Below are positions 15,584-44,011 of a stretch of 64,000 bases of DNA, piece by piece; within the stretch, counting starts at the first letter, position 1; each line of letters begins with the position of its first letter. This DNA comes from a phage. Under the pieces are notes generated by a model, which did not search any database, was not told where the DNA came from, and saw nothing but the letters and a program-made list of their open reading frames with translations. Made by a program: the position numbers and the translations under genes. Location: NCBI GenBank assembly GCA_031520405.1, contig GCA_031520405.1_4842.1. One strand, given 5' to 3'.

Positions 15584-15618
15584 AACGGGGTTTACTTCTT
15601 CAATAAACCCCGTATACT
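15584..15618 (+). promoter_or_regulatory. early-promoter cassette: hairpin overlapping -35 GTTTAC, 17-nt spacer, -10 TATACT
   Basis: ACGGGGTTTA...TAAACCCCGT hairpin; GTTTAC(15590-15595)-N17-TATACT(15613-15618); conserved leader to ATG 15667. Confidence 0.45.
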
Positions 15619-15666
15619 TCATTCCATAAGCAGCACAACACTGACTCTGAAATGAAGGACTACACC

Positions 15667-15963
15667 ATGAACAACATGCCAACCACCAAAACTGCTCTGG
15701 AAATCGATTCTCGCTTTATCGTTGAAGCATGGGCCAACAGCCAAAACTCTTATGTGTATTCCCTTTATGTCGGTGACACTTATGTTTCTTGCCTCGGCAT
15801 CGACGGCTCCAAGAACGAGCACGGCGTGAACGAGCGCTATACCAAAAAGCAGGCTATCGCTGATGCTACCAAATTCGCGACCGACATTCTGGGTCGCATC
15901 AATGCGGGTAAACCGTACAAACGCGGTGAAAAGGGCTATGTCACCCAATTGCTTGGTGCTTGA
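15667..15963 (+). CDS. hypothetical protein (N-terminus MNNMPTTKT; member of recurring early gene module)
   Basis: AAGGA RBS; leader and N-terminus resemble those of genes at 51770 and 57644. Confidence 0.5.
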   Translation: MNNMPTTKTALEIDSRFIVEAWANSQNSYVYSLYVGDTYVSCLGIDGSKNEHGVNERYTKKQAIADATKFATDILGRINAGKPYKRGEKGYVTQLLGA

Positions 15964-16032
15964 TTTGTTCTAAACCTTTGAACGGGGTATGTTAACCGCA
16001 TACCCTATCCCCTACAAATAGAGGACTTTACC

Positions 16033-16377
16033 ATGACAGTCGACACCAAACTGAATAATTCCGTGGAGATCCCCCACATCGTCAAATTCGAAAAGCCGAG
16101 CGAGCGTAAGCCACGCAAAACGCGCCGCCTGGTCACCAAGCTGGATCTTCTGAAACAGAAGTTCGGCGATCACAGTGTGTTCACTCGCATCCGTAACGCA
16201 TTAAAGGAAGGGCGAACCGAGTTGGAGCTATATCGTCCAAACGGTTCCACTCGTGCGTATCAGACCACCGACGGCTTGCTGGAACTGATCCGCCTCTCGG
16301 GAATGAGCATAGAACCTCGTTCATCAGGGACTCCCTTGTGCAGCCTGTATGTAATCGGCAATCTTGGGGCGCTGTGA
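16033..16377 (+). CDS. hypothetical protein
   Basis: ORF with GAGGA RBS. Confidence 0.5.
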   Translation: MTVDTKLNNSVEIPHIVKFEKPSERKPRKTRRLVTKLDLLKQKFGDHSVFTRIRNALKEGRTELELYRPNGSTRAYQTTDGLLELIRLSGMSIEPRSSGTPLCSLYVIGNLGAL

Positions 16378-16382
16378 GTTCT

Positions 16383-16805
16383 ATGAAGAAGTATATCGTT
16401 CTTATAACGGGTTCCCGTTCTATAACTGAGCGGGATAAAATATTTGCCAAATTAGATGAACTCTTAATCCCTCACGAGATAGAGACGTTTATTGAAGGTG
16501 AAGCAGTAGGTGTGGATCTGATATCCCGTGATTGGTGTGAAATCAATTATGTGCATATTACACCAATGCCGATTCCTCAAAATTACCATACGTTATATGG
16601 GAAAGGTGCGGGCAATCAACGTAACAAAGATATGCTGGACAAGGCTCTAACATTGGCGAAGCAAAAAGATCTTGAGGTCTTTGGAATTGCATTATGGGAT
16701 GGTTCGTCTACTGGGACGCAAGACATGATCAAGCGCATGAAGAAAGCGGGAATAAATGTCAATATCACTCTCATGGGCAAACCCAAAACCAAACGATTGT
16801 TATAA
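16383..16805 (+). CDS. SLOG-like (DprA/LOG Rossmann-like, DUF2493-type) protein
   Basis: IVLITGSRS strand, GEAVGVDLISRDW, WDGSSTGTQDMI: motif pattern typical of SLOG nucleotide-binding domains. Confidence 0.45.
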   Translation: MKKYIVLITGSRSITERDKIFAKLDELLIPHEIETFIEGEAVGVDLISRDWCEINYVHITPMPIPQNYHTLYGKGAGNQRNKDMLDKALTLAKQKDLEVFGIALWDGSSTGTQDMIKRMKKAGINVNITLMGKPKTKRLL

Positions 16806-16808
16806 ATA
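16801..16808 (+). promoter_or_regulatory. T4-type late promoter box TATAAATA
   Basis: only perfect TATAAATA in the window; 28 nt upstream of ATG 16836. Confidence 0.3.
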
Positions 16809-16835
16809 AATTTGCCACCCATGAGGAGTTATACC

Positions 16836-17006
16836 ATGTTACAAATACTGTTGGTGCTTTGTGTCGCATTTACCATGTACTTCATGGCGCGCATCTGTTT
16901 TATTACTTTAGATGACATGAAGGGTATCCCACGTGACCACAAATTCATCTTTCTGAAGAAGTTTGCCAAAAAGTTCTCAGAAAACTTTATTTATCATCTA
17001 CCATGA
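16836..17006 (+). CDS. small hydrophobic protein (56 aa)
   Basis: ATG with GAGGAG RBS; hydrophobic N-terminal segment. Confidence 0.35.
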   Translation: MLQILLVLCVAFTMYFMARICFITLDDMKGIPRDHKFIFLKKFAKKFSENFIYHLP

Positions 17007-17036
17007 TTAAATACCCCCAAAATTGGGGGTATTTTT

Positions 17037-17765
17037 ATGAACGCACAAATCTACGATGTCCTTTCCTCTGGTAACGCATTTAGCAATCCGCTTCCGTCCC
17101 TCTCCGGTCCCTCACAGGATTTAATCACCAGTGGTAGTACCAATATACCATTGATAACTGCCAACGCGACTCCGGAAATGCAGGTGGCTATGTCAGCAGG
17201 TGGATTAACACCAGATAAACTTACAGCAGCCACAAACATGTATAGCTCTGCCAACACGGGGATAACGACACTGAACACATATGGCGACCAGAGCATAAAT
17301 GAAGCGTATTCAAGAATTGGGACTTCCGTTTCATATAAATCAGGTTTGAAAAGTATATCACGGGAACCAAACAATTGTGACCTGATCAACAAAGCATTCG
17401 GTGTTATTCAGGATCTAGGCCGCCAATGGTTAAACGCTATGGAAGGCGCTCTCCAGACTGTGACTAACAAGATATCGGAATTGTATGACATGATTATGGA
17501 AGGTGCCTCAGAAGGGATGGCAAAACTACAGCAATTGGCTGCTGAAGTAACAGGACATATCAATGAGGCAATAACCGCCGTCAATGGAGTTATAAATGAT
17601 ATCACCGATGGGATAGCTGCAGAACTTGCTCATATTGAAAGTATGATCAAAGAATGTCTAAACTTCTCTTTTGCGAATGTTCTTGGAGAATGGGCCAAAG
17701 ATCTCTGTGCTGGAGGCGTTATTGATAAAATAGGGACTCCAGAATTAAAAGAGTCCCTGAAATAA
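17037..17765 (+). CDS. hypothetical protein (242 aa)
   Basis: ORF starting just after a G/C hairpin; no recognisable domain. Confidence 0.5.
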   Translation: MNAQIYDVLSSGNAFSNPLPSLSGPSQDLITSGSTNIPLITANATPEMQVAMSAGGLTPDKLTAATNMYSSANTGITTLNTYGDQSINEAYSRIGTSVSYKSGLKSISREPNNCDLINKAFGVIQDLGRQWLNAMEGALQTVTNKISELYDMIMEGASEGMAKLQQLAAEVTGHINEAITAVNGVINDITDGIAAELAHIESMIKECLNFSFANVLGEWAKDLCAGGVIDKIGTPELKESLK

Positions 17766-18386
17766 TCAATGTCTAGCGGGGAGAACTCCCACTGGTTCGA
17801 TACCTTCCATCACCAGGGAGTTCACCCCAACATCACTCATTCGAATCCATACTTTACCGCCTGGTCTTATTTCATAGATGTTCATTTCATTACCCACAGC
17901 AGATCCATTAACGAAAACACCCTGAGTGGCAATTCGGATCGGAGATTTGGTGTTATTAACTATCTGAAATGATATTGCAACGTCTCTGGTGATTTCTACG
18001 TCCCTTGCTTGAGTATTCCTTCTGAGTTTGTCAAAGAAAGAAGGGTTGAAAGTCGCTATGATGCTATTATTCTGAGAGTAATAAATACTTGCGGATAGAT
18101 ATGGGATCTTTCCTTCGTCACCTTTCCTCAATAGGGGAATCGTGGTTTTCCAGTATGGTCTCAGTGACTGGTTGTTATCATCAAAACAACCAACAGCTTG
18201 AAGAGTCTGGAAGTTCTGAAAATCAGATACTACTTGATTCAGAATATTTTTATTGCATTTATCAATGTCGGCTGAGATGTTAACAGGTATGGTTCTGATT
18301 TCAGGATCCCAGAGGTCGGTTACAGAAATGACGGACGTGACAAAGATACGGCAACTTGTGAGTGCAAGCACCATTATCATCGTCAT
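17766..18386 (-). CDS. putative lipoprotein (reverse strand)
   Basis: N-terminus MTMIMVLALTSC with lipobox LTSC; long uninterrupted reverse ORF where forward frames are fragmented; stop abuts stop of convergent 17037..17765. Confidence 0.45.
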   Translation of the reverse strand: MTMIMVLALTSCRIFVTSVISVTDLWDPEIRTIPVNISADIDKCNKNILNQVVSDFQNFQTLQAVGCFDDNNQSLRPYWKTTIPLLRKGDEGKIPYLSASIYYSQNNSIIATFNPSFFDKLRRNTQARDVEITRDVAISFQIVNNTKSPIRIATQGVFVNGSAVGNEMNIYEIRPGGKVWIRMSDVGVNSLVMEGIEPVGVLPARH

Positions 18387-18449
18387 GATCCATTTTCTGA
18401 ATCCGCGTGTCAGGAACACTAAAACGTTCTCCACAGCAAAGGTGCTAAC

Positions 18450-18947
18450 ATGACAGGTGTACAATTCAAAAACGAAAATCCTAATTTCGCGGCTTCCGAT
18501 AAATGGCGCTTAACTATCGGAGACCTGATATTGCTTACTCGTTCAATACATGACTTCAGTATTCCTGGAGTGTATTCTGAAGGTATCGAGGGTCCATCCC
18601 CTGGCGATGTGCTCAACTCCATACCTTCAGAACGTCTCACGTATGACCCCATCGTATTTACGTTCGTTATCGATGAGAGTTGGTACAACTGGGAACAGAT
18701 TTACAATTGGATTGCGTCTAATGCTGGATCTGATTTAGCTGTTAGCCGCGACATCACCATCGACCTTCTTGATAACATGAATCGACCTATTGGTCTACAA
18801 TTGTTGTTGGAAGAAGCCCGTCCCACAGCTTTGGATAACGTATTGGTGGATGTGGATGCTGCGGTTCCCCAACTGGTCACGACTGTTACGTTCAAATATT
18901 TGAAACTGACTCCGACTCGCGTCACCCGCGAAATTGATAAACAATAA
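18450..18947 (+). CDS. hypothetical protein
   Basis: ORF with RBS-like AAGGTG upstream. Confidence 0.5.
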   Translation: MTGVQFKNENPNFAASDKWRLTIGDLILLTRSIHDFSIPGVYSEGIEGPSPGDVLNSIPSERLTYDPIVFTFVIDESWYNWEQIYNWIASNAGSDLAVSRDITIDLLDNMNRPIGLQLLLEEARPTALDNVLVDVDAAVPQLVTTVTFKYLKLTPTRVTREIDKQ

Positions 18948-18985
18948 GTTATAATACAGAGAGTTGAAACAGCAGGGAATAAATC

Positions 18986-19441
18986 ATGAGCGAAACAAAA
19001 CTTGAAACGATGAAAACCGAAGATATAATGGCAGAATTGGAACCTCTTATTTCGGTAAATCCTGAAGACATGAACTTGGACCAAATGTCATTGAAAATTG
19101 GTCGTTCGTGGATGACTGTGCAACGCCATTATATTCGTGAAGGAAGATATCTGGAGTATCTAACTGGCAAATTCCGCCAAATAGATCTCTATTTACGCCG
19201 ATTTTATGCAGGGGAATTGCCGCCCAACGTTTATGTTGAACGCCCATTAAAAGTTCGACCCCTGAAATCTGATATAGATGTATGGGTAAAAGCAGATGAT
19301 GATTATATCGAATTGTCTAGCATGCTTCAAGAGCAGAAAGCCAAAGTCAAGTTCATCGAAAGTTGCTTAGATCGTTTGAACAAACTCGGATATGAAGTGA
19401 AGAATGCTATTGATTGGCGAAAATATTTGGATGGGATGTAA
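18986..19441 (+). CDS. hypothetical protein, possibly UvsY-like recombination mediator
   Basis: weak resemblance of N- and C-terminal segments to T4 UvsY; adjacent to UvsW. Confidence 0.35.
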   Translation: MSETKLETMKTEDIMAELEPLISVNPEDMNLDQMSLKIGRSWMTVQRHYIREGRYLEYLTGKFRQIDLYLRRFYAGELPPNVYVERPLKVRPLKSDIDVWVKADDDYIELSSMLQEQKAKVKFIESCLDRLNKLGYEVKNAIDWRKYLDGM

Positions 19442-20187
19442 TGGTTTCTCTACAGGCTTTGCGCAAACTTAATGACTTTGAAAATCGTCATCATACATTT
19501 CAGCAATATTCCTTGCCGTTTAAGGAACTGACTTGCGTAACTACCGAAAATGGTCGTCACTATGTTTCTCCCACTGGAGTCAAACTGACTTCAGTGACGA
19601 CCATGTTAGGGCGTACTGGTGACCACACATGGTTAGAAGCCTGGCGGGACAAGTTGGGGCATGAAGCTGCTGATATAGAAACGCATCGTTGCGCAGACCG
19701 TGGGGAAAAACTTCATTTGGCTTGTGAGTTGTATCTCAAAAACAGACCAATGAAAGAAGTTCTGGAAGCTGCAGGGGAATACGTGTTTATGTTCAAACAG
19801 GTTTTCCCCTACCTTAACAAAATGAGCAAGATATATGCACAAGAGATTCCATTATATAGCGAAGTCCTGGGTCTTGCTGGTCGTGTTGACCTCATCGGGG
19901 TTTACGAAGGAATTCCAAGCATAATCGATTTCAAAACATCCAACACCCTAAAAACTCGAAGCATGATAGAAGATTATAGTATTCAATTGTGTCTATACTC
20001 AGTCATGTTTCAACAAATGTTTAATGTCAAGATAGAGCGTTTAATCAATATTATATCCAACGAAAATGCCCTTGTTCCCACCATAATCGAATTCGATCGC
20101 AAAGACGTTATTTCTAAAATGTTTGACCGTGTCCGTCTGTATCACAAAATGGACAAAGAACAGAAAGGAATCTGGGCGGATCGCTAA
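19441..20187 (+). CDS. PD-(D/E)xK family nuclease-like protein
   Basis: GRVDLIG...IIDFKTS matches D...(D/E)xK core; ATG overlaps upstream stop (TAATG). Confidence 0.5.
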   Translation: MVSLQALRKLNDFENRHHTFQQYSLPFKELTCVTTENGRHYVSPTGVKLTSVTTMLGRTGDHTWLEAWRDKLGHEAADIETHRCADRGEKLHLACELYLKNRPMKEVLEAAGEYVFMFKQVFPYLNKMSKIYAQEIPLYSEVLGLAGRVDLIGVYEGIPSIIDFKTSNTLKTRSMIEDYSIQLCLYSVMFQQMFNVKIERLINIISNENALVPTIIEFDRKDVISKMFDRVRLYHKMDKEQKGIWADR

Positions 20188-20216
20188 ATACTCCATAATA
20201 TTGGGGGAAATTAGTG

Positions 20217-21716
20217 ATGTCTGAGATCCAAATAGTCAAAGTGAACGAAGTTAGAATGCGGATCCTTGCCGAGGATTATATCCGTGAAGAACTCAACGAT
20301 TACTTCAAATTTGAAGATCCTAATTTCCAACCGAATCCGTTCAGTAAATGGGACGGCGTAGTGCGGTTGTTCACAAAGAGTTCTGGGCTTATCGACATCG
20401 GCCTGTTATTTGAGGTGTTCAAATTCTGTAAGATGAACGGTTACACCATCAAATTAGATCCGGCCTTAAAATATATTCAAGATATTCCGGATGAAGAAAT
20501 TCATGCGTTCATCGATACATTGAATGCGGTGTACCGAGACGAAAACAAACAATATCAAAAAGCGATTGTCCGCGATTATCAATTTGATTCTGTTGCCACA
20601 GCAATACGCCAAAGCAGATGTGTCCTCGAAGCTGCCACGAGTGCTGGCAAATCCTTTATTTTGTACATCATGGCGCGTTACTACAGGCAACGCAGAGATG
20701 CCCTCGAAAGTAATCTGAGGACGTTAATCGTTGTACCATCCATTCATTTGGTGACTCAGTTGTATGACAACTTCGAAGAATATAGCCACGGGACAGAATG
20801 GAAACCATTGATGAATGTCCAGACAATATACGAAGGGGCAACGAAAGAGATTTTCAAACCCATAGTTATTTCAACTTGGCAAGGTATCCAGAACCAACCC
20901 AAAGAGTGGTTCCATCAATTTGGAGATATCGTCGTCGACGAAGTACATACATCAAAATCAGATAAATTGTCTTACATCTTGAATAACTGTATTAACGCTG
21001 ATCAACGTTTGGGAGTAACCGGAACCCTGGCGAATACAAAGGTCGCAGGGTTACAAGTCGTTGCTCACTTTGGCGCATATCATAAAATTATTACAGCGCG
21101 CGATTTAATCGATCTAGGATATGCGGCAGACATCAATGTTAATATGATTGAAGTCATACATCCTATGGCAGACTGTATTGAAATGCACGGTGCTGAGTAT
21201 CAAAAGGAAATAGAATTCCTCATTGCTAACGAACGCCGCAATGAATTGATAGCTCGAATGGCTCTATCTTTGAAAGGGAACGTCGCAGTAATGTTCGAAC
21301 GTATCGATGCACACATGATGTTGGTTTATGAAATGCTATCGACAGTCAAGAAAAACGTATTCGTCATCAACGGGGAAGTCAAGACAGAAGTTCGTAAACA
21401 GATTCAGGCTGCTATGGAAGAAGGTGAAGATATAACACTGTTGGCTTCATACGGTACTATGCAACAGGGCGTATCTATCAAAAAACTCCATCATCTGATA
21501 TTGGCCCATCCCAGCAAATCTTATATCCGTGTTATACAGACATTGGGGCGTTTGATGCGTCAGCATTCCTCTAAGGATGTTGCGCGAATCTGGGACCTGG
21601 TAGACAACCTGCGTTACAACGGTTCCTACAACCATGCTCTCAGGCATTCTCATGAGAGATATAAATTTTATCTTATGGAGCGCCACCCTGTTAAAATGAA
21701 AAAAGTGGCGCTCTAA
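20217..21716 (+). CDS. uvsW: UvsW-like SF2 DNA helicase
   Basis: ATSAGKSFILYIMARYY and TWQGIQNQPKEWFHQFG...DEVH closely match T4 UvsW; similar length. Confidence 0.85.
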   Translation: MSEIQIVKVNEVRMRILAEDYIREELNDYFKFEDPNFQPNPFSKWDGVVRLFTKSSGLIDIGLLFEVFKFCKMNGYTIKLDPALKYIQDIPDEEIHAFIDTLNAVYRDENKQYQKAIVRDYQFDSVATAIRQSRCVLEAATSAGKSFILYIMARYYRQRRDALESNLRTLIVVPSIHLVTQLYDNFEEYSHGTEWKPLMNVQTIYEGATKEIFKPIVISTWQGIQNQPKEWFHQFGDIVVDEVHTSKSDKLSYILNNCINADQRLGVTGTLANTKVAGLQVVAHFGAYHKIITARDLIDLGYAADINVNMIEVIHPMADCIEMHGAEYQKEIEFLIANERRNELIARMALSLKGNVAVMFERIDAHMMLVYEMLSTVKKNVFVINGEVKTEVRKQIQAAMEEGEDITLLASYGTMQQGVSIKKLHHLILAHPSKSYIRVIQTLGRLMRQHSSKDVARIWDLVDNLRYNGSYNHALRHSHERYKFYLMERHPVKMKKVAL

Positions 21717-21721
21717 CTATT

Positions 21722-22087
21722 TCAAAGATCTTGGTTCACATAGGCGGGGGTTGCCTCGCCTTCTTTGTTGGAACCAAATAAACAGTCGATCGTGCCAATA
21801 CATTGTTGTAGCACTTTCGGCTCAAGAATCTGAGAAAACAATTCTTCATTAGATGCCAGCAATGGAACAACTTTCACTTCCCGCGCCTGGCCTTGTTGAA
21901 TAATGCCAACATACAGACCTTTGTTATTTGGGAGTAATGGTATCACCATCATCGGTGTCACAACAAACCCCGATGTACAGAAAAGGCTTTGTAAATAAAC
22001 GCCTTTTAATGACGAACGTTGTTCTGATATGGAAAGAATTGCTTCTTGGTCTTCCCCTACTGCGTATAAACCAACAAATTGCTTCAT
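21722..22087 (-). CDS. hypothetical protein (reverse strand)
   Basis: 121-aa reverse ORF with no competing forward ORF; convergent with uvsW. Confidence 0.45.
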   Translation of the reverse strand: MKQFVGLYAVGEDQEAILSISEQRSSLKGVYLQSLFCTSGFVVTPMMVIPLLPNNKGLYVGIIQQGQAREVKVVPLLASNEELFSQILEPKVLQQCIGTIDCLFGSNKEGEATPAYVNQDL

Positions 22088-40031: not shown

Positions 40032-40237
40032 TCGGGTTAATCCGTTATCTGTTCATATTCGTAATAACAACATTCATTTTATTTTTCTTTTTCAAATACT
40101 TGAAAGAGACTAAAATCTACCGGAGTAAACGTTGGCGCAAACGGGTGAGAGTAACTTTCCTACTGCTGATTTCTTCGGTTACAATAACTGCACTCACGTT
40201 GGGTGCTTATATTTACATTTTTGAAGGAGTACATTGA
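40028..40237 (+). CDS. small membrane protein with two predicted TM helices
   Basis: two long hydrophobic stretches separated by RSKRWRKRVR basic loop; overlaps start of downstream lipoprotein gene. Confidence 0.45.
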   Translation: MIGLIRYLFIFVITTFILFFFFKYLKETKIYRSKRWRKRVRVTFLLLISSVTITALTLGAYIYIFEGVH

Positions 40238-41028
40238 TGTTCAAGAAACTGGTATTTGGCGCAATTATGGTCCTAGCAACAAGCCTTCTTTCAGGCTGCG
40301 GCGGTGTTATCGATGAAGGAAACGTCGGTGTTCGAACCCAATGGGGTGAAGTGGACATGAACCCTGTAACCGCAGGTATCTACACCAGTTTCGTTTCAAG
40401 TGTAGATGTCTATACGACTAAAGAAGCCGTCGTGAGTCTGACGAAAATGACGCCAAAGGCCAAAGACAACCTGACCTTGGAAGATCTGGATGTGGACGTT
40501 TATTACACACCGAACGTCGCGAAGGTTCCTTGGTTCCATACCAAATTTGCAGGTCAGAGCGCTGAACTCGGTGACGGCACGATAGCGGTGGGATTCAACC
40601 TGGTTAAAACCGCCGCAGCATCCTCAACGATGGACGCCGTTTCCTCTTTGGATTCTATGACAATTCACACCCAACGGGCTGAGTTAGAAAAGATGATCAA
40701 GGAACGCACCCAGCAGCAATTAGAAACAGCTGCGCCTGGCATGTTCACAATCACACGCGTGTTGGTCAAAAAGGCGCTGACAGATCCTTCGATTGAGCAA
40801 TCTATCCGTGATAATGTCATGGCCGACAAACGTTTGGATACAGCAAGAAAGAACGTTGAAATTCGCGACCAAGAAGCCAAGGCGAATCAGAAACTGACGA
40901 CATCTCTGACACCTGAATATTTACAACACGAATATAACATGGTGTTGCAATCTTGCGCCAACAGCGGGAAATGTACTCTGATTGTTGATGGTTCAGGCTC
41001 AAGTAAAATGCTAAACGTCGGCAAATAA
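40237..41028 (+). CDS. SPFH/band-7 domain lipoprotein
   Basis: lipobox LLSGC after hydrophobic leader; VGVRTQWGEV and PKAKDNLTLEDLDVDVYY match the SPFH core; GAAGGAG RBS. Confidence 0.55.
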   Translation: MFKKLVFGAIMVLATSLLSGCGGVIDEGNVGVRTQWGEVDMNPVTAGIYTSFVSSVDVYTTKEAVVSLTKMTPKAKDNLTLEDLDVDVYYTPNVAKVPWFHTKFAGQSAELGDGTIAVGFNLVKTAAASSTMDAVSSLDSMTIHTQRAELEKMIKERTQQQLETAAPGMFTITRVLVKKALTDPSIEQSIRDNVMADKRLDTARKNVEIRDQEAKANQKLTTSLTPEYLQHEYNMVLQSCANSGKCTLIVDGSGSSKMLNVGK

Positions 41029-41525: not shown

Positions 41526-43247
41526 GTGACAGCATTTAATCAACACCGAAAGGCGATTGACGCCATAGGCCGTAAGGTTCCTGTGGAAGAAATACAACGC
41601 CTTACCAAAGATGAATTCCCATATGACAAAGCGAACCCAGGCCAGATGGAATGCATCGTCGAAGCCATAGATGCGCTTATCAACAAAAAGGTTAAACATG
41701 TCATCATTGAAGCTCCGACAGGTGTCGGTAAATCTTTGATTGGCACTACCATTCATAAAGTGATTCGCCATCTAGTTTTACAGGCTGATCCTTATGGGCA
41801 ATTTCGCACTTCTATCAGCACCCCGACCAAAGGTCTGCAAGATCAGTATGCTGCTGAAAAGGCGGTGGCGATAGACATCCTAAAAGGCAAGAAGAACTAT
41901 CGTTGCCACGTACATCCAGATGTGTATTACAATGCTGTCCAATGCCGTATAGCATGCCGTGACGGGCATTGTAGCAAACGCCGCTGTCCTTATGTACAGG
42001 CGCGTAATTTGTGGACGGATATTTCATCATTGCGTTGTACTAATGCTGCCATGATGATCGAAATGTGTACAACCATCTGCATGAAGCCCGAAAACCGTTC
42101 CGATATGCTGATCCTTGACGAGTGCCATAAAATGCCCTCTACGCTCCTAGAGCACACGATCATGGAATACAATACAAAGGCCGTGGAGGGGCTGCGTTCT
42201 ATCCCTGAGGGAAAGGAGATCGTCTCTACCATTGGTGATATCGTAGAACGCACCAAGGACTATGTCCTGGGCAAGTTATATTCTTTGTCTGGTGAACTAC
42301 ATTCAATGTTTGAAGACCTCCATCTCAAAGTAGAAAATTTGTTGGAAGTCCTTGAAGAATTGGTCGAAGATGATCGCTTGAGTGAAAGCCAAGTGATGAA
42401 ACTCGCAGACATTATAGATGTCTTGCATAACTTGAGTGATTATTGCGGTATTATGTCACAAACCCAAGCAAGTACATTTATTGTGCAAGAAAAGGGGGAA
42501 GATTTTATCCGGTTTAAACCTGTTATGCCTTCTGATGTAAGTGAATTCGGGTTATTCCGAAAAGCTGATTATCACGTTCATATGTCAGCAACGATCTGTG
42601 GTATAGATTCGTATGCTCGTTCATTGGGTATTCGACAGGGGGATTATCATTCCATTCAGATCGGCAACCCTATCCCGATTGAAAACAGAAAAGTCAACTA
42701 TATGCCCATAGTGAAGATGACTAACAATATGGGTGACTATGAAATGAAAAGGTTGACGGAATATATTGATGAAATAATCGCGTTCCACCCAGGTCAGTCC
42801 GGCATTATCCATACAGTGAGTTATGATCGCGCCTTGGCAATACAAAAATTCAGCAAATATCAGAATTTTATCCATGTTCCGCGTACCCGAAAGGCGTTGA
42901 TGGATATTATGGAAAATGCTTTTAGAACAAAGTCCCCATGCGTCATTGCCAGTCCTGCCATGGAAGAAGGTTATGATTTCAAAGGGGATTACAGCCGTTT
43001 CCAAATACTGATCAAAGTCCCTTATGATTATCTGGGCGATCCACTGATAGCACATATCAATTCAGTGGATCCGTCGGCATATTTCCGCAATGCAGTACTG
43101 CGCATTGTTCAAATGTGTGGGCGTTCGGTCAGGGGTGTTGATGACTGGGCTGCGACATACATCATTGATTCATCCTTTGAATCTCTTATGATGCGCAACC
43201 CAGAATTCTTCCCAACCTGGTTCACCGATGCAGTGTTTGAGGTTTAA
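41526..43247 (+). CDS. DinG/XPD-like Fe-S SF2 DNA helicase
   Basis: GTG start 6 nt after AGGAGG; Walker A APTGVGKS, DECH box, Cys-rich insert between them. Confidence 0.6.
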   Translation: MTAFNQHRKAIDAIGRKVPVEEIQRLTKDEFPYDKANPGQMECIVEAIDALINKKVKHVIIEAPTGVGKSLIGTTIHKVIRHLVLQADPYGQFRTSISTPTKGLQDQYAAEKAVAIDILKGKKNYRCHVHPDVYYNAVQCRIACRDGHCSKRRCPYVQARNLWTDISSLRCTNAAMMIEMCTTICMKPENRSDMLILDECHKMPSTLLEHTIMEYNTKAVEGLRSIPEGKEIVSTIGDIVERTKDYVLGKLYSLSGELHSMFEDLHLKVENLLEVLEELVEDDRLSESQVMKLADIIDVLHNLSDYCGIMSQTQASTFIVQEKGEDFIRFKPVMPSDVSEFGLFRKADYHVHMSATICGIDSYARSLGIRQGDYHSIQIGNPIPIENRKVNYMPIVKMTNNMGDYEMKRLTEYIDEIIAFHPGQSGIIHTVSYDRALAIQKFSKYQNFIHVPRTRKALMDIMENAFRTKSPCVIASPAMEEGYDFKGDYSRFQILIKVPYDYLGDPLIAHINSVDPSAYFRNAVLRIVQMCGRSVRGVDDWAATYIIDSSFESLMMRNPEFFPTWFTDAVFEV

Positions 43248-44011
43248 TAACCCGCAATAAACGATAAATGACACTTGATATTTGGTTCAAGTGTCGTTAT
43301 CGTGATAATCATATTGTCCACATCTTGGCTGAAAGATATATTTGCGATCGGTTTGGTTTGAACATGATTATACAGGCTATAAATCAGATCTTCACCACGA
43401 TAACCGATTTTGCCATCAGTGTCCTGCCAATGACCGAGGGTAGACTCTCGAGCGTGTACTCGGAATTCGACCATATGAAACAATGCTTTTGGGATTGTCT
43501 TCAGTATGCTGGTCCCAACAACCGGAATATCAATAGAAGAGTCGTTGGAGTTTCCTTCATAAACAGATTCCCAACCAAATATTGGATCCCCGCCAGCTAC
43601 AGGAGTTCTTTTCCAGTATTGGAATTCTGGGTTTCCGGCGGAGTTCTTTTGTAGGAGTATTACTTCACCGCCTTCAAAATTGGAAGTGTCTATATCGTCC
43701 CTTGCTAATAAATCTGCCGGAGAACCAATAAATTTCCAAGTTTCGCGATCTAAAATAGACTTATAATGATCGGTGAATACGTTACTGTCGCCAGCTGAAT
43801 TAATTGCGTCTTTAAGACCTTCACCTGTGACCATCTCATTAAGTTTTAGCCACATGTTTTTGACAGCTGACGCAGCTGCGACTTGACCTTCAGTCCCACC
43901 CGCCGTGTAGTCATAAATGATGTCCAGCTTTTGTATGGAATCATTTATAGACAAGAGCAAACGCTCAATTTCTGGGGCGGTCAGACTGAAACGATATGCG
44001 CGTTCTGACAT
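43244..44011 (-). CDS. hypothetical protein (reverse strand)
   Basis: 255-aa reverse ORF with GAGG RBS; stop overlaps stop of convergent helicase gene. Confidence 0.45.
   Translation of the reverse strand: MSERAYRFSLTAPEIERLLLSINDSIQKLDIIYDYTAGGTEGQVAAASAVKNMWLKLNEMVTGEGLKDAINSAGDSNVFTDHYKSILDRETWKFIGSPADLLARDDIDTSNFEGGEVILLQKNSAGNPEFQYWKRTPVAGGDPIFGWESVYEGNSNDSSIDIPVVGTSILKTIPKALFHMVEFRVHARESTLGHWQDTDGKIGYRGEDLIYSLYNHVQTKPIANISFSQDVDNMIITITTLEPNIKCHLSFIAGY

Follow-up and report, generated by a model that had tools for sequence, protein, structure and literature searches.

Locus and gene conservation

The window considered in this study is the whole stretch of phage DNA that was analysed (64,000 nucleotides (nt), contig GCA_031520405.1_4842.1 of assembly GCA_031520405.1), and our subject is a gene carried by its minus strand at positions 17766–18419, which starts with GTG, stops with TGA (17768–17766) and encodes a 217-amino-acid (aa) prolipoprotein of the DUF7424 family. 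Bases 16000–20500 of the window match Escherichia phage vB_EcoM_JN03 (Kuttervirus, Ackermannviridae) at 100% identity and many Salmonella Kuttervirus genomes at 95–99.6%; judged by this identity, the window is a Kuttervirus genome. The lipoprotein gene lies between two plus-strand genes, namely a convergent neighbour (17037–17765) encoding a DUF7217 virion-associated ‘structural protein’ (Pfam DUF7217, E 1.9e-102) and a divergent neighbour (18450–18947) encoding a gp3-like tail tube terminator or tail completion protein (phrog_45, similar to the T4-type gp3 structures 9mkb and 9mof). About 85 genes are found in the 64-kb window, and the supported minus-strand genes are only three (the lipoprotein gene, 21722–22087 and 43244–44011). 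On the minus strand, one uninterrupted frame spans 17766 to 18464, and the forward frames across the lipoprotein region contain only open reading frames (ORFs) of 64–67 aa. The preliminary description of this DNA, which presented a reverse-strand gene embedded among forward genes with abutting convergent stops, is thus borne out in both respects, since the TGA of the lipoprotein ORF (complement of 17766–17768) directly touches the TAA (17763–17765) of the forward gene. Stops that abut or stand 1 nt apart are conserved in enteric genera and were found in Kuttervirus, Taipeivirus, Limestonevirus, Agtrevirus and RPN242. The divergent linkage between the lipoprotein gene and the gp3-like gene is kept even in Vibrio phage 1.244.A; the linkage with DUF7217 is limited to the enteric genera, and the Vibrio phage has an unrelated NUMOD3 protein as neighbour instead.

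The encoded protein matches Pfam DUF7424 (PF24199) with an E-value of 9.5e-61 and 205.4 bits (gathering cutoff 27), over residues 15–205 of a 206-aa version and model positions 2–195 of 196, and it matches phrog_3832 with an E-value of 2e-109. Using tblastn, the lipoprotein gene was found in 346 phage records and the adjoining gp3-like gene in 359, with equal counts for the phages of Salmonella, Klebsiella, Escherichia, Dickeya, Serratia, Shigella, Erwinia, Enterobacter and Aeromonas, and 61 versus 70 records for the Vibrio phages. These nearly equal counts make it a core gene of the Ackermannviridae. In addition, the ratio of nonsynonymous to synonymous substitution rates (dN/dS, Nei-Gojobori) ranged from 0.04 to 0.15 against five other genera or lineages and reached 0.27 against the most distant one, values which indicate that the gene is under strong purifying selection. 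A special diversification between Kuttervirus lineages was also considered and found unsupported, the nucleotide identity to phage Sajous1 (75–86%) being similar to that of the flanks.

Start codon and gene model

Translation most likely starts at GTG 18419 (217 aa) rather than at ATG 18386 (206 aa), the start retained by the preliminary description, which leaves the gene 11 codons short. This choice is favoured because the N-terminal extension and the Shine-Dalgarno sequence are conserved, and because of the homologue lengths and the n-region of the signal peptide. Indeed, the 11 added residues (MFLTRGFRKWI) show the conserved pattern MxLxRGIxR across 20 homologues, and the database homologues, mostly 213–219 aa long, cover 100% of the 217-aa query. 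The Shine-Dalgarno sequence GGAG (18429–18432, minus strand) stands 9 nt upstream of the GTG, and the arrangement GGAGA-N8-9-GTG is kept in five genera (Kuttervirus, Taipeivirus, Limestonevirus, Agtrevirus and Miltonvirus). A start at ATG 18386 would produce a signal peptide without a positive n-region, which the GTG start supplies as MFLTRGFRK.

Published records differ in the length that they give to this protein: moki has 217 aa, JN03 and Magnus have 202 and 203 aa, respectively, and RPN242 has a truncated version of 135 aa. The conserved GTG is used only in the moki, pertopsoe, Sajous1 and Coodle records. In the JN03 and Magnus records, internal ATG starts were chosen and the n-region is lost; in RPN242 (OL656110.1, 966–2145), the gp3-like gene was lengthened to 774 nt, so that it covers the lipoprotein N-terminus, and the lipoprotein gene was cut to 408 nt. 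Note that the label ‘putative lipoprotein’ is already present in moki (for the same 217-aa coding sequence) and in pertopsoe.

Lipoprotein signals

The minus-strand ORF contains the peptide MTMIMVLALTSC. From the translation, the alignment of 20 homologues and the lipobox scan, a signal peptide is predicted for residues 1–22 (18354–18419, minus strand), with the n-region MFLTRGFRK, the h-region WIMTMIMVLA and the lipobox residues L-T-S immediately before the cysteine. The codon of Cys23 (18351–18353, minus strand), the predicted lipid-modified +1 residue, is followed by an arginine at +2, and this cysteine is invariant in a 62-sequence alignment. The lipobox, defined here as [LVI][ASTVI][GAS]C with a conserved cysteine at +1, reads LTSC in the window protein and L-[TVNAS]-[SG]-C across the homologues; among the full-length members of the family, it was found in 208 of 221 (~ 94%). 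When 1662 candidate starts of the window were scanned, a signal peptide combined with a lipobox appeared only here and in 40237–41028 (plus strand); together with the Pfam match and the dN/dS values, this places the lipoprotein gene well beyond chance. The ORF at 40237–41028 is a second phage lipoprotein gene, beginning with MFKKLVFGAIMVLATSLLSGC and encoding 263 aa, with an SPFH/Band-7 domain (Pfam E 1.2e-12) and a match to phrog_200 ‘lipoprotein’.

We consider it practically certain that the gene at 17766–18419 is a genuine lipoprotein gene, as the preliminary description had proposed, given the conserved lipobox and cysteine, the Pfam DUF7424 match, the purifying selection and the frequency of the lipobox in the family. 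Under the Lol rule established for E. coli, an arginine at +2 predicts sorting to the outer membrane. Arginine occupies this position in 49/49 Ackermannviridae-type members, lysine is found there in most bacterial members, and by this rule the protein probably sits in the outer membrane.

Convergent junction and transcription

The preliminary description had also stated that no terminator lies between the two convergent stops. Taken literally this is correct, since there is no spacer at all, but the final codons of the neighbouring gene contain a terminator-like hairpin. In the minus-strand mRNA, this element (17724–17757) consists of a stem formed by 17751–17757 and 17733–17739, an 11-nt loop and the U-rich segment UAUUUUAUC (17732–17724). 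The hairpin itself, GGGACTC-N11-GAGTCCC (17733–17757), has a folding free energy of -18.3 kcal/mol with a z-score of -4.65 (0/200 shuffles), and it is located 8 nt past the lipoprotein stop, among the 11 final codons of the DUF7217 gene. Sajous1 retains the stem through a C-to-U wobble change, and a terminator is marked at the corresponding position in the Magnus record. In Serratia phage 2050H1 and Vibrio phage 1.244.A, the convergent genes are instead separated by 29–32 nt, filled with a canonical GC-rich hairpin and T-run; in the window, this spacer has been lost. Read on the plus strand, the hairpin lacks a following U-tract and stands before the DUF7217 stop codon; therefore, it plausibly acts as a one-way terminator for the lipoprotein mRNA. 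As a separate observation, a plus-strand terminator-like site (18124–18149, TTCCTCAATAGGGGAA followed by TCGTGGTTTT) occurs within the lipoprotein gene, antisense to it; such sites are no commoner in this region than in shuffled sequences and this one may be a chance occurrence.

On the other side of the gene, the divergent starts (18419 and 18450) are only 30 nt apart and the gap holds both Shine-Dalgarno sequences, so that the promoter of each gene must lie inside the other gene. The best minus-strand candidate, TTGAAT-N16-TAGCAC, is unconvincing: its -10 element is poor and its conservation is explained by the FKNEN codons and the Shine-Dalgarno sequence of the neighbouring gene.

Concerning late transcription, the motif CTAAATA occurs eight times in the window, always on the plus strand (746, 4996, 9777, 10995, 20184, 50325, 50912 and 55102) and mostly a few tens of nucleotides upstream of an ORF start. 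This total is not above chance expectation (6.1 +/− 2.4), and the signal resides in the strand and position bias. In this phage, CTAAATA probably takes the role of late-promoter motif that TATAAATA plays in T4; the T4 sequence has one match in the window (16801), no more than expected by chance, and was discarded as a candidate. CTAAATA is absent from the minus strand of the window, hence from the region upstream of the lipoprotein gene; for the related query TAAATAC, the nearest minus-strand match (18654–18660) is 235 nt upstream of the gene. Since the CTAAATA motif never precedes it, the lipoprotein gene does not look like a late gene. If late plus-strand readthrough occurs from upstream of 17037 to the gp3-like gene, it could plausibly shut off the lipoprotein gene in antisense. 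A search of the accessible literature returned no usable report on DUF7424, or on Ackermannviridae or Kuttervirus transcriptomics. Overall, the gene is probably an independently transcribed minus-strand unit, set on the opposite strand to its neighbours, with its own Shine-Dalgarno sequence and GTG start and its own terminator-like hairpin.

Protein model and virion proteome

Cys55 and Cys78 are invariant in the Ackermannviridae, Cys78 being nearly invariant over the whole family, and these two residues probably form a periplasmic disulfide. The AlphaFold2 model built from the 62-sequence alignment is of high confidence, with a predicted local distance difference test (pLDDT) value of 92.8 and a predicted template modelling (pTM) score of 0.86, and displays an N-terminal alpha/beta domain (residues ~ 25–137) followed by a C-terminal beta-sandwich (~ 147–212). 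Sequence searches of PDB, NCBIfam and PADLOC returned no match; for the PADLOC models, this holds for the window protein and for four bacterial relatives at E<=0.1. As far as the model goes, the predicted structure gives no functional assignment.

A Sec/lipobox export signal is incompatible with the assembly of virions in the cytoplasm. In the deposited Sajous1 record, the lipoprotein corresponds to gp167, which stands between gp166 (DUF7217) and gp168 (tail completion). Liquid chromatography-tandem mass spectrometry of Sajous1 virions purified on cesium chloride (CsCl) detected gp166 and gp168 with 8 spectra each, and gp167 is not listed (PMC10892097, Table 6). The ‘ferrojan horse operon’ described in the same phage (gp214–217, PMC10892097) was considered as a possible equivalent of the locus and rejected, the homologue being gp167. 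Altogether, the product is probably a non-structural protein acting at the envelope.

Distribution of DUF7424

A profile search of 1.84 billion representative proteins identified 92 relatives, nearly all of 190–230 aa, and a second search added 88 bacterial-type members, all with PF24199, from Photorhabdus, Castellaniella, Alcaligenes, Pectobacterium, Pasteurellaceae, Orbus and Enterobacter. A further profile search, in which the 62-sequence alignment was run against a word-indexed database, returned mostly Ackermannviridae again.

The genomic contexts of these members fall within tail modules, lysogeny modules and chromosomal loci. In a Pasteurellaceae prophage, the DUF7424 gene stands between the tape measure gene and a Dit-like gene; in the Mu-like prophage of Enterobacter sp. 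FY-07, between the tape measure gene and that of a DNA-circulation protein; and in a Pectobacterium polaris prophage, between Baseplate_J and a wedge protein gene. All three of these tail-module copies are followed by their own intrinsic terminator, and two of the three are preceded by a promoter-like site. In a 186-like prophage of Phytobacter, the order is CII, then the CI repressor, DUF7424 and the integrase, the latter three on one strand; in a Halomonas element, DUF7424 follows an S24/helix-turn-helix repressor, and in Paracandidimonas it belongs to a prophage region. Photorhabdus, Alcaligenes, Orbus and two Enterobacteriaceae (including 4M9) carry stand-alone chromosomal DUF7424 genes. 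This pattern matches that of a moron or accessory gene, which would be expressed independently of the surrounding phage operon, the lysogeny operon included. The possession of an own terminator, as a moron should have, was observed in the window (17724–17757), in the Serratia and Vibrio relatives and in the prophage copies.

Note that Vibrio phage 1.244.A carries a second, distant DUF7424-like gene (MG592609.1, 88722–89084), annotated as ‘membrane lipoprotein’, far from the syntenic copy and matched by bacterial members of the family (E 2e-4 to 3e-5).

Other features of the window

Downstream of the gp3-like gene come uvsY, a PD-(D/E)XK exonuclease gene and a helicase gene. The DUF7217 gene is preceded by TTAAATAC at 17007–17014, and parts of tape measure and baseplate-hub proteins in PHROG match its product weakly (E 7e-4 to 6e-3); a relative in the PDB was not found. 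As for the two other minus-strand genes, 21722–22087 belongs to phrog_4255 and is named ‘clamp loader subunit’ in moki, and 43244–44011 belongs to phrog_3833 and encodes 255 aa with no Pfam match and no assigned function. Compared with Sajous1, the nucleotide identity falls sharply to 41–55% around 15600–16100, with 98–100% on the left flank and values rising through 69–97% to 98–100% on the right, which points to a mosaic exchange affecting one or two small genes that lie upstream of the SLOG/YspA-like gene. In addition, the GenBank record OR844942.1 (‘Enterococcus phage Efm 3-10’, 111 kb) shows 97% DNA identity to this Kuttervirus region, two proteins being 99.5–100% identical; this record, labelled as an Enterococcus faecium phage, is probably mislabelled or contaminated.

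Discussion

Our results lead us to propose the following scheme for the DUF7424 lipoprotein. Translated from GTG 18419, the precursor would be exported by Sec, acylated and cleaved at Cys23 by Lgt, LspA and Lnt, and sorted by the Lol system through its arginine at +2, probably to the inner leaflet of the outer membrane. The mature part of ~ 195 aa, with its alpha/beta domain, its beta-sandwich and a probable Cys55–Cys78 disulfide, would then face the periplasm and remodel the envelope of the infected cell (‘lytic conversion’) in such a way that further phage particles would be unable to inject productively, with the possible added effect that fewer progeny would be lost to debris. As its target we propose a step that does not depend on the host, such as the action of the tail tip or of the tape measure, or the penetration of the cell wall and peptidoglycan, and not one receptor.

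We tentatively assign the lipoprotein to superinfection exclusion or lytic conversion, on circumstantial support: its relatives form self-contained units in the lysogeny and tail modules of prophages, and the protein is absent from a virion proteome. This function is favoured because envelope-targeted, independently transcribed and non-structural phage genes located in lysogeny or tail modules usually act in exclusion, because a host-fitness factor would bring no obvious benefit to a family of virulent phages, and because the gene is conserved alongside the conserved tail machinery and not with the host-specific tailspikes. The last point makes the masking of a single receptor unlikely and suggests a host-independent step. 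Taking the gene, the lipoprotein and its function together, we give the whole statement a probability of roughly 45%.

Several observations weigh against this interpretation. Sigma-70 scans found no convincing minus-strand promoter upstream of the window gene, nor anything convincing upstream of its Serratia and Vibrio orthologues. The sorting to one membrane is not uniform within the family, as ~ 16 members have an aspartate at +2, and the chromosomal orphans, which lack any phage context, mean that DUF7424 is not exclusively phage-borne. Moreover, the absence of gp167 from one virion proteome is a weak negative, given that tryptic mass spectrometry often misses lipoproteins.

Other functions have to be weighed against the same body of evidence. 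Llp of phage T5 switches off FhuA, and mature Llp and Cor proteins have a size of ~ 60 aa; in receptor masking of this type, the lipoprotein binds one outer-membrane receptor from the periplasmic side and switches it off. The preliminary description had named receptor masking, along with superinfection exclusion, as a frequent role of phage-encoded outer-membrane lipoproteins. The window protein resembles T5 Llp and the Cor proteins of T1, phi80 and N15 as a phage-encoded, non-structural lipoprotein facing the periplasm (and probably held in the outer membrane), with a conserved intramolecular cysteine pair, in a virulent phage and beside tail genes, on the strand opposite to them, a placement which recalls that of T5 llp, a gene for a ‘small’ protein adjoining the tail (pb5) gene (PMC9586334). 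However, its mature part is about three times larger and folds into two predicted domains, the Pfam scan gives DUF7424 alone, there is no sequence match in the PDB and no sequence similarity to Llp or Cor, and the adjoining genes encode the DUF7217 protein and the tube terminator, not a tailspike or a receptor-binding protein. Above all, it is a core gene in phages of Salmonella, Klebsiella, Dickeya, Serratia, Vibrio and Aeromonas, whose receptors differ, and its relatives occur in prophages with unrelated tail types, so that receptor masking now appears improbable. The chances of a lysis-related envelope factor, whether a component resembling an o-spanin or u-spanin or a periplasmic protein that regulates the timing of lysis, appear equally slim. 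The classic outer-membrane lipoproteins of virulent phages are indeed the o-spanins, no other o-spanin candidate was found in the 64-kb window, and the protein shares with Rz1-type o-spanins a lipobox without aspartate at +2. In contrast to these, it is much larger (217 aa) and globular, with two folded domains where a short proline-rich peptide would be expected; its C-terminus (...GIEPVGVLPARH) is not the transmembrane segment required of a u-spanin; and no i-spanin, holin or endolysin gene, and no lysis cassette, lies next to it or overlaps it. Kuttervirus genomes have a separate annotated Rz-like spanin/i-spanin pair (PMC10892097, table), and a spanin would make no sense in the lysogeny modules and chromosomal loci where relatives reside.

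Several of these relatives are stand-alone chromosomal genes amid ordinary metabolic or transport genes, which would fit a general host-envelope or fitness factor (for stress or serum resistance, adhesion or envelope maintenance), carried as a moron like lambda Bor, and the lack of a match in the PADLOC defence database goes in the same direction. We nevertheless hold this explanation to be unlikely for the phage gene, a core gene under strong purifying selection in a strictly virulent family, whose host dies within one cycle. The least credible alternative is a virion or tail assembly protein whose apparent lipobox is unused. Both flanking genes encode virion proteins and some relatives sit inside prophage tail modules, as this explanation would have it; against it stand the signal peptide and cysteine conserved over the family, the absence of the protein from CsCl-purified Sajous1 virions in which both neighbours were detected, its location on the opposite strand without a late-promoter-like motif, and the own terminator of the prophage copies inside tail operons.

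Known exclusion systems offer further points of comparison for an exclusion role of DUF7424. The lysogeny module of the Streptococcus thermophilus phage TP-J34 encodes Ltp, a lipoprotein that acts through the tape measure protein to block DNA injection (PMC3952083). Similarly, DUF7424 members were found between a prophage repressor and integrase, or directly after a tape measure gene, and are predicted to be lipid-anchored outside the cytoplasm; a comparison of the window protein with Ltp found no similarity in sequence or fold. In phage T4, Spackle (Sp) is a soluble periplasmic protein and Imm an inner-membrane protein, and neither of them is a lipoprotein. Apart from this difference and from the lack of detected sequence or fold similarity, the T4 proteins and ours are alike in being products of conserved genes of a large virulent myovirus family that are exported to the envelope and not found in the virion, and the family of the window phage possesses T4-like replication and late-transcription genes. 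This likeness would support an action on the phage's own penetration machinery rather than on a receptor.

It was already known that the gene is annotated as ‘putative lipoprotein’ and DUF7424, and that phages often carry lipoproteins. What our analysis adds is the corrected start, the embedded terminator, the status of core gene, a confident model without known structural relative and the recurring context in tail and lysogeny modules. The immediate value lies in the corrected gene model (GTG start and embedded terminator) together with the family-wide context. A broader proposal, which we regard as doubtful, is that DUF7424 represents an unrecognised family of lipoproteins which face the periplasm, are widespread among Gram-negative phages and prophages, and have a fold unlike solved structures. 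Its members would block a receptor-independent step of contractile-tailed phages, such as the action of the tail tip or tape measure or the penetration of the cell wall; all Ackermannviridae would have fixed the gene for self-exclusion as part of their core, and as a moron it would have spread into the tail and lysogeny modules of prophages.

Phages of the Ackermannviridae, among them Kuttervirus, Limestonevirus and Taipeivirus, find wide use, actual or proposed, in the biocontrol of Salmonella, E. coli O157, Klebsiella and Dickeya and in therapy directed at these bacteria, and a core envelope lipoprotein that changes the surface of the infected cell would affect the design of phage cocktails, through mutual exclusion between phages, as well as lysis and yield. 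If the exclusion role is true, DUF7424 would be a structurally new and easily testable family among the few exclusion proteins of Gram-negative phages, and its prophage and chromosomal copies would be unrecognised determinants of phage resistance.

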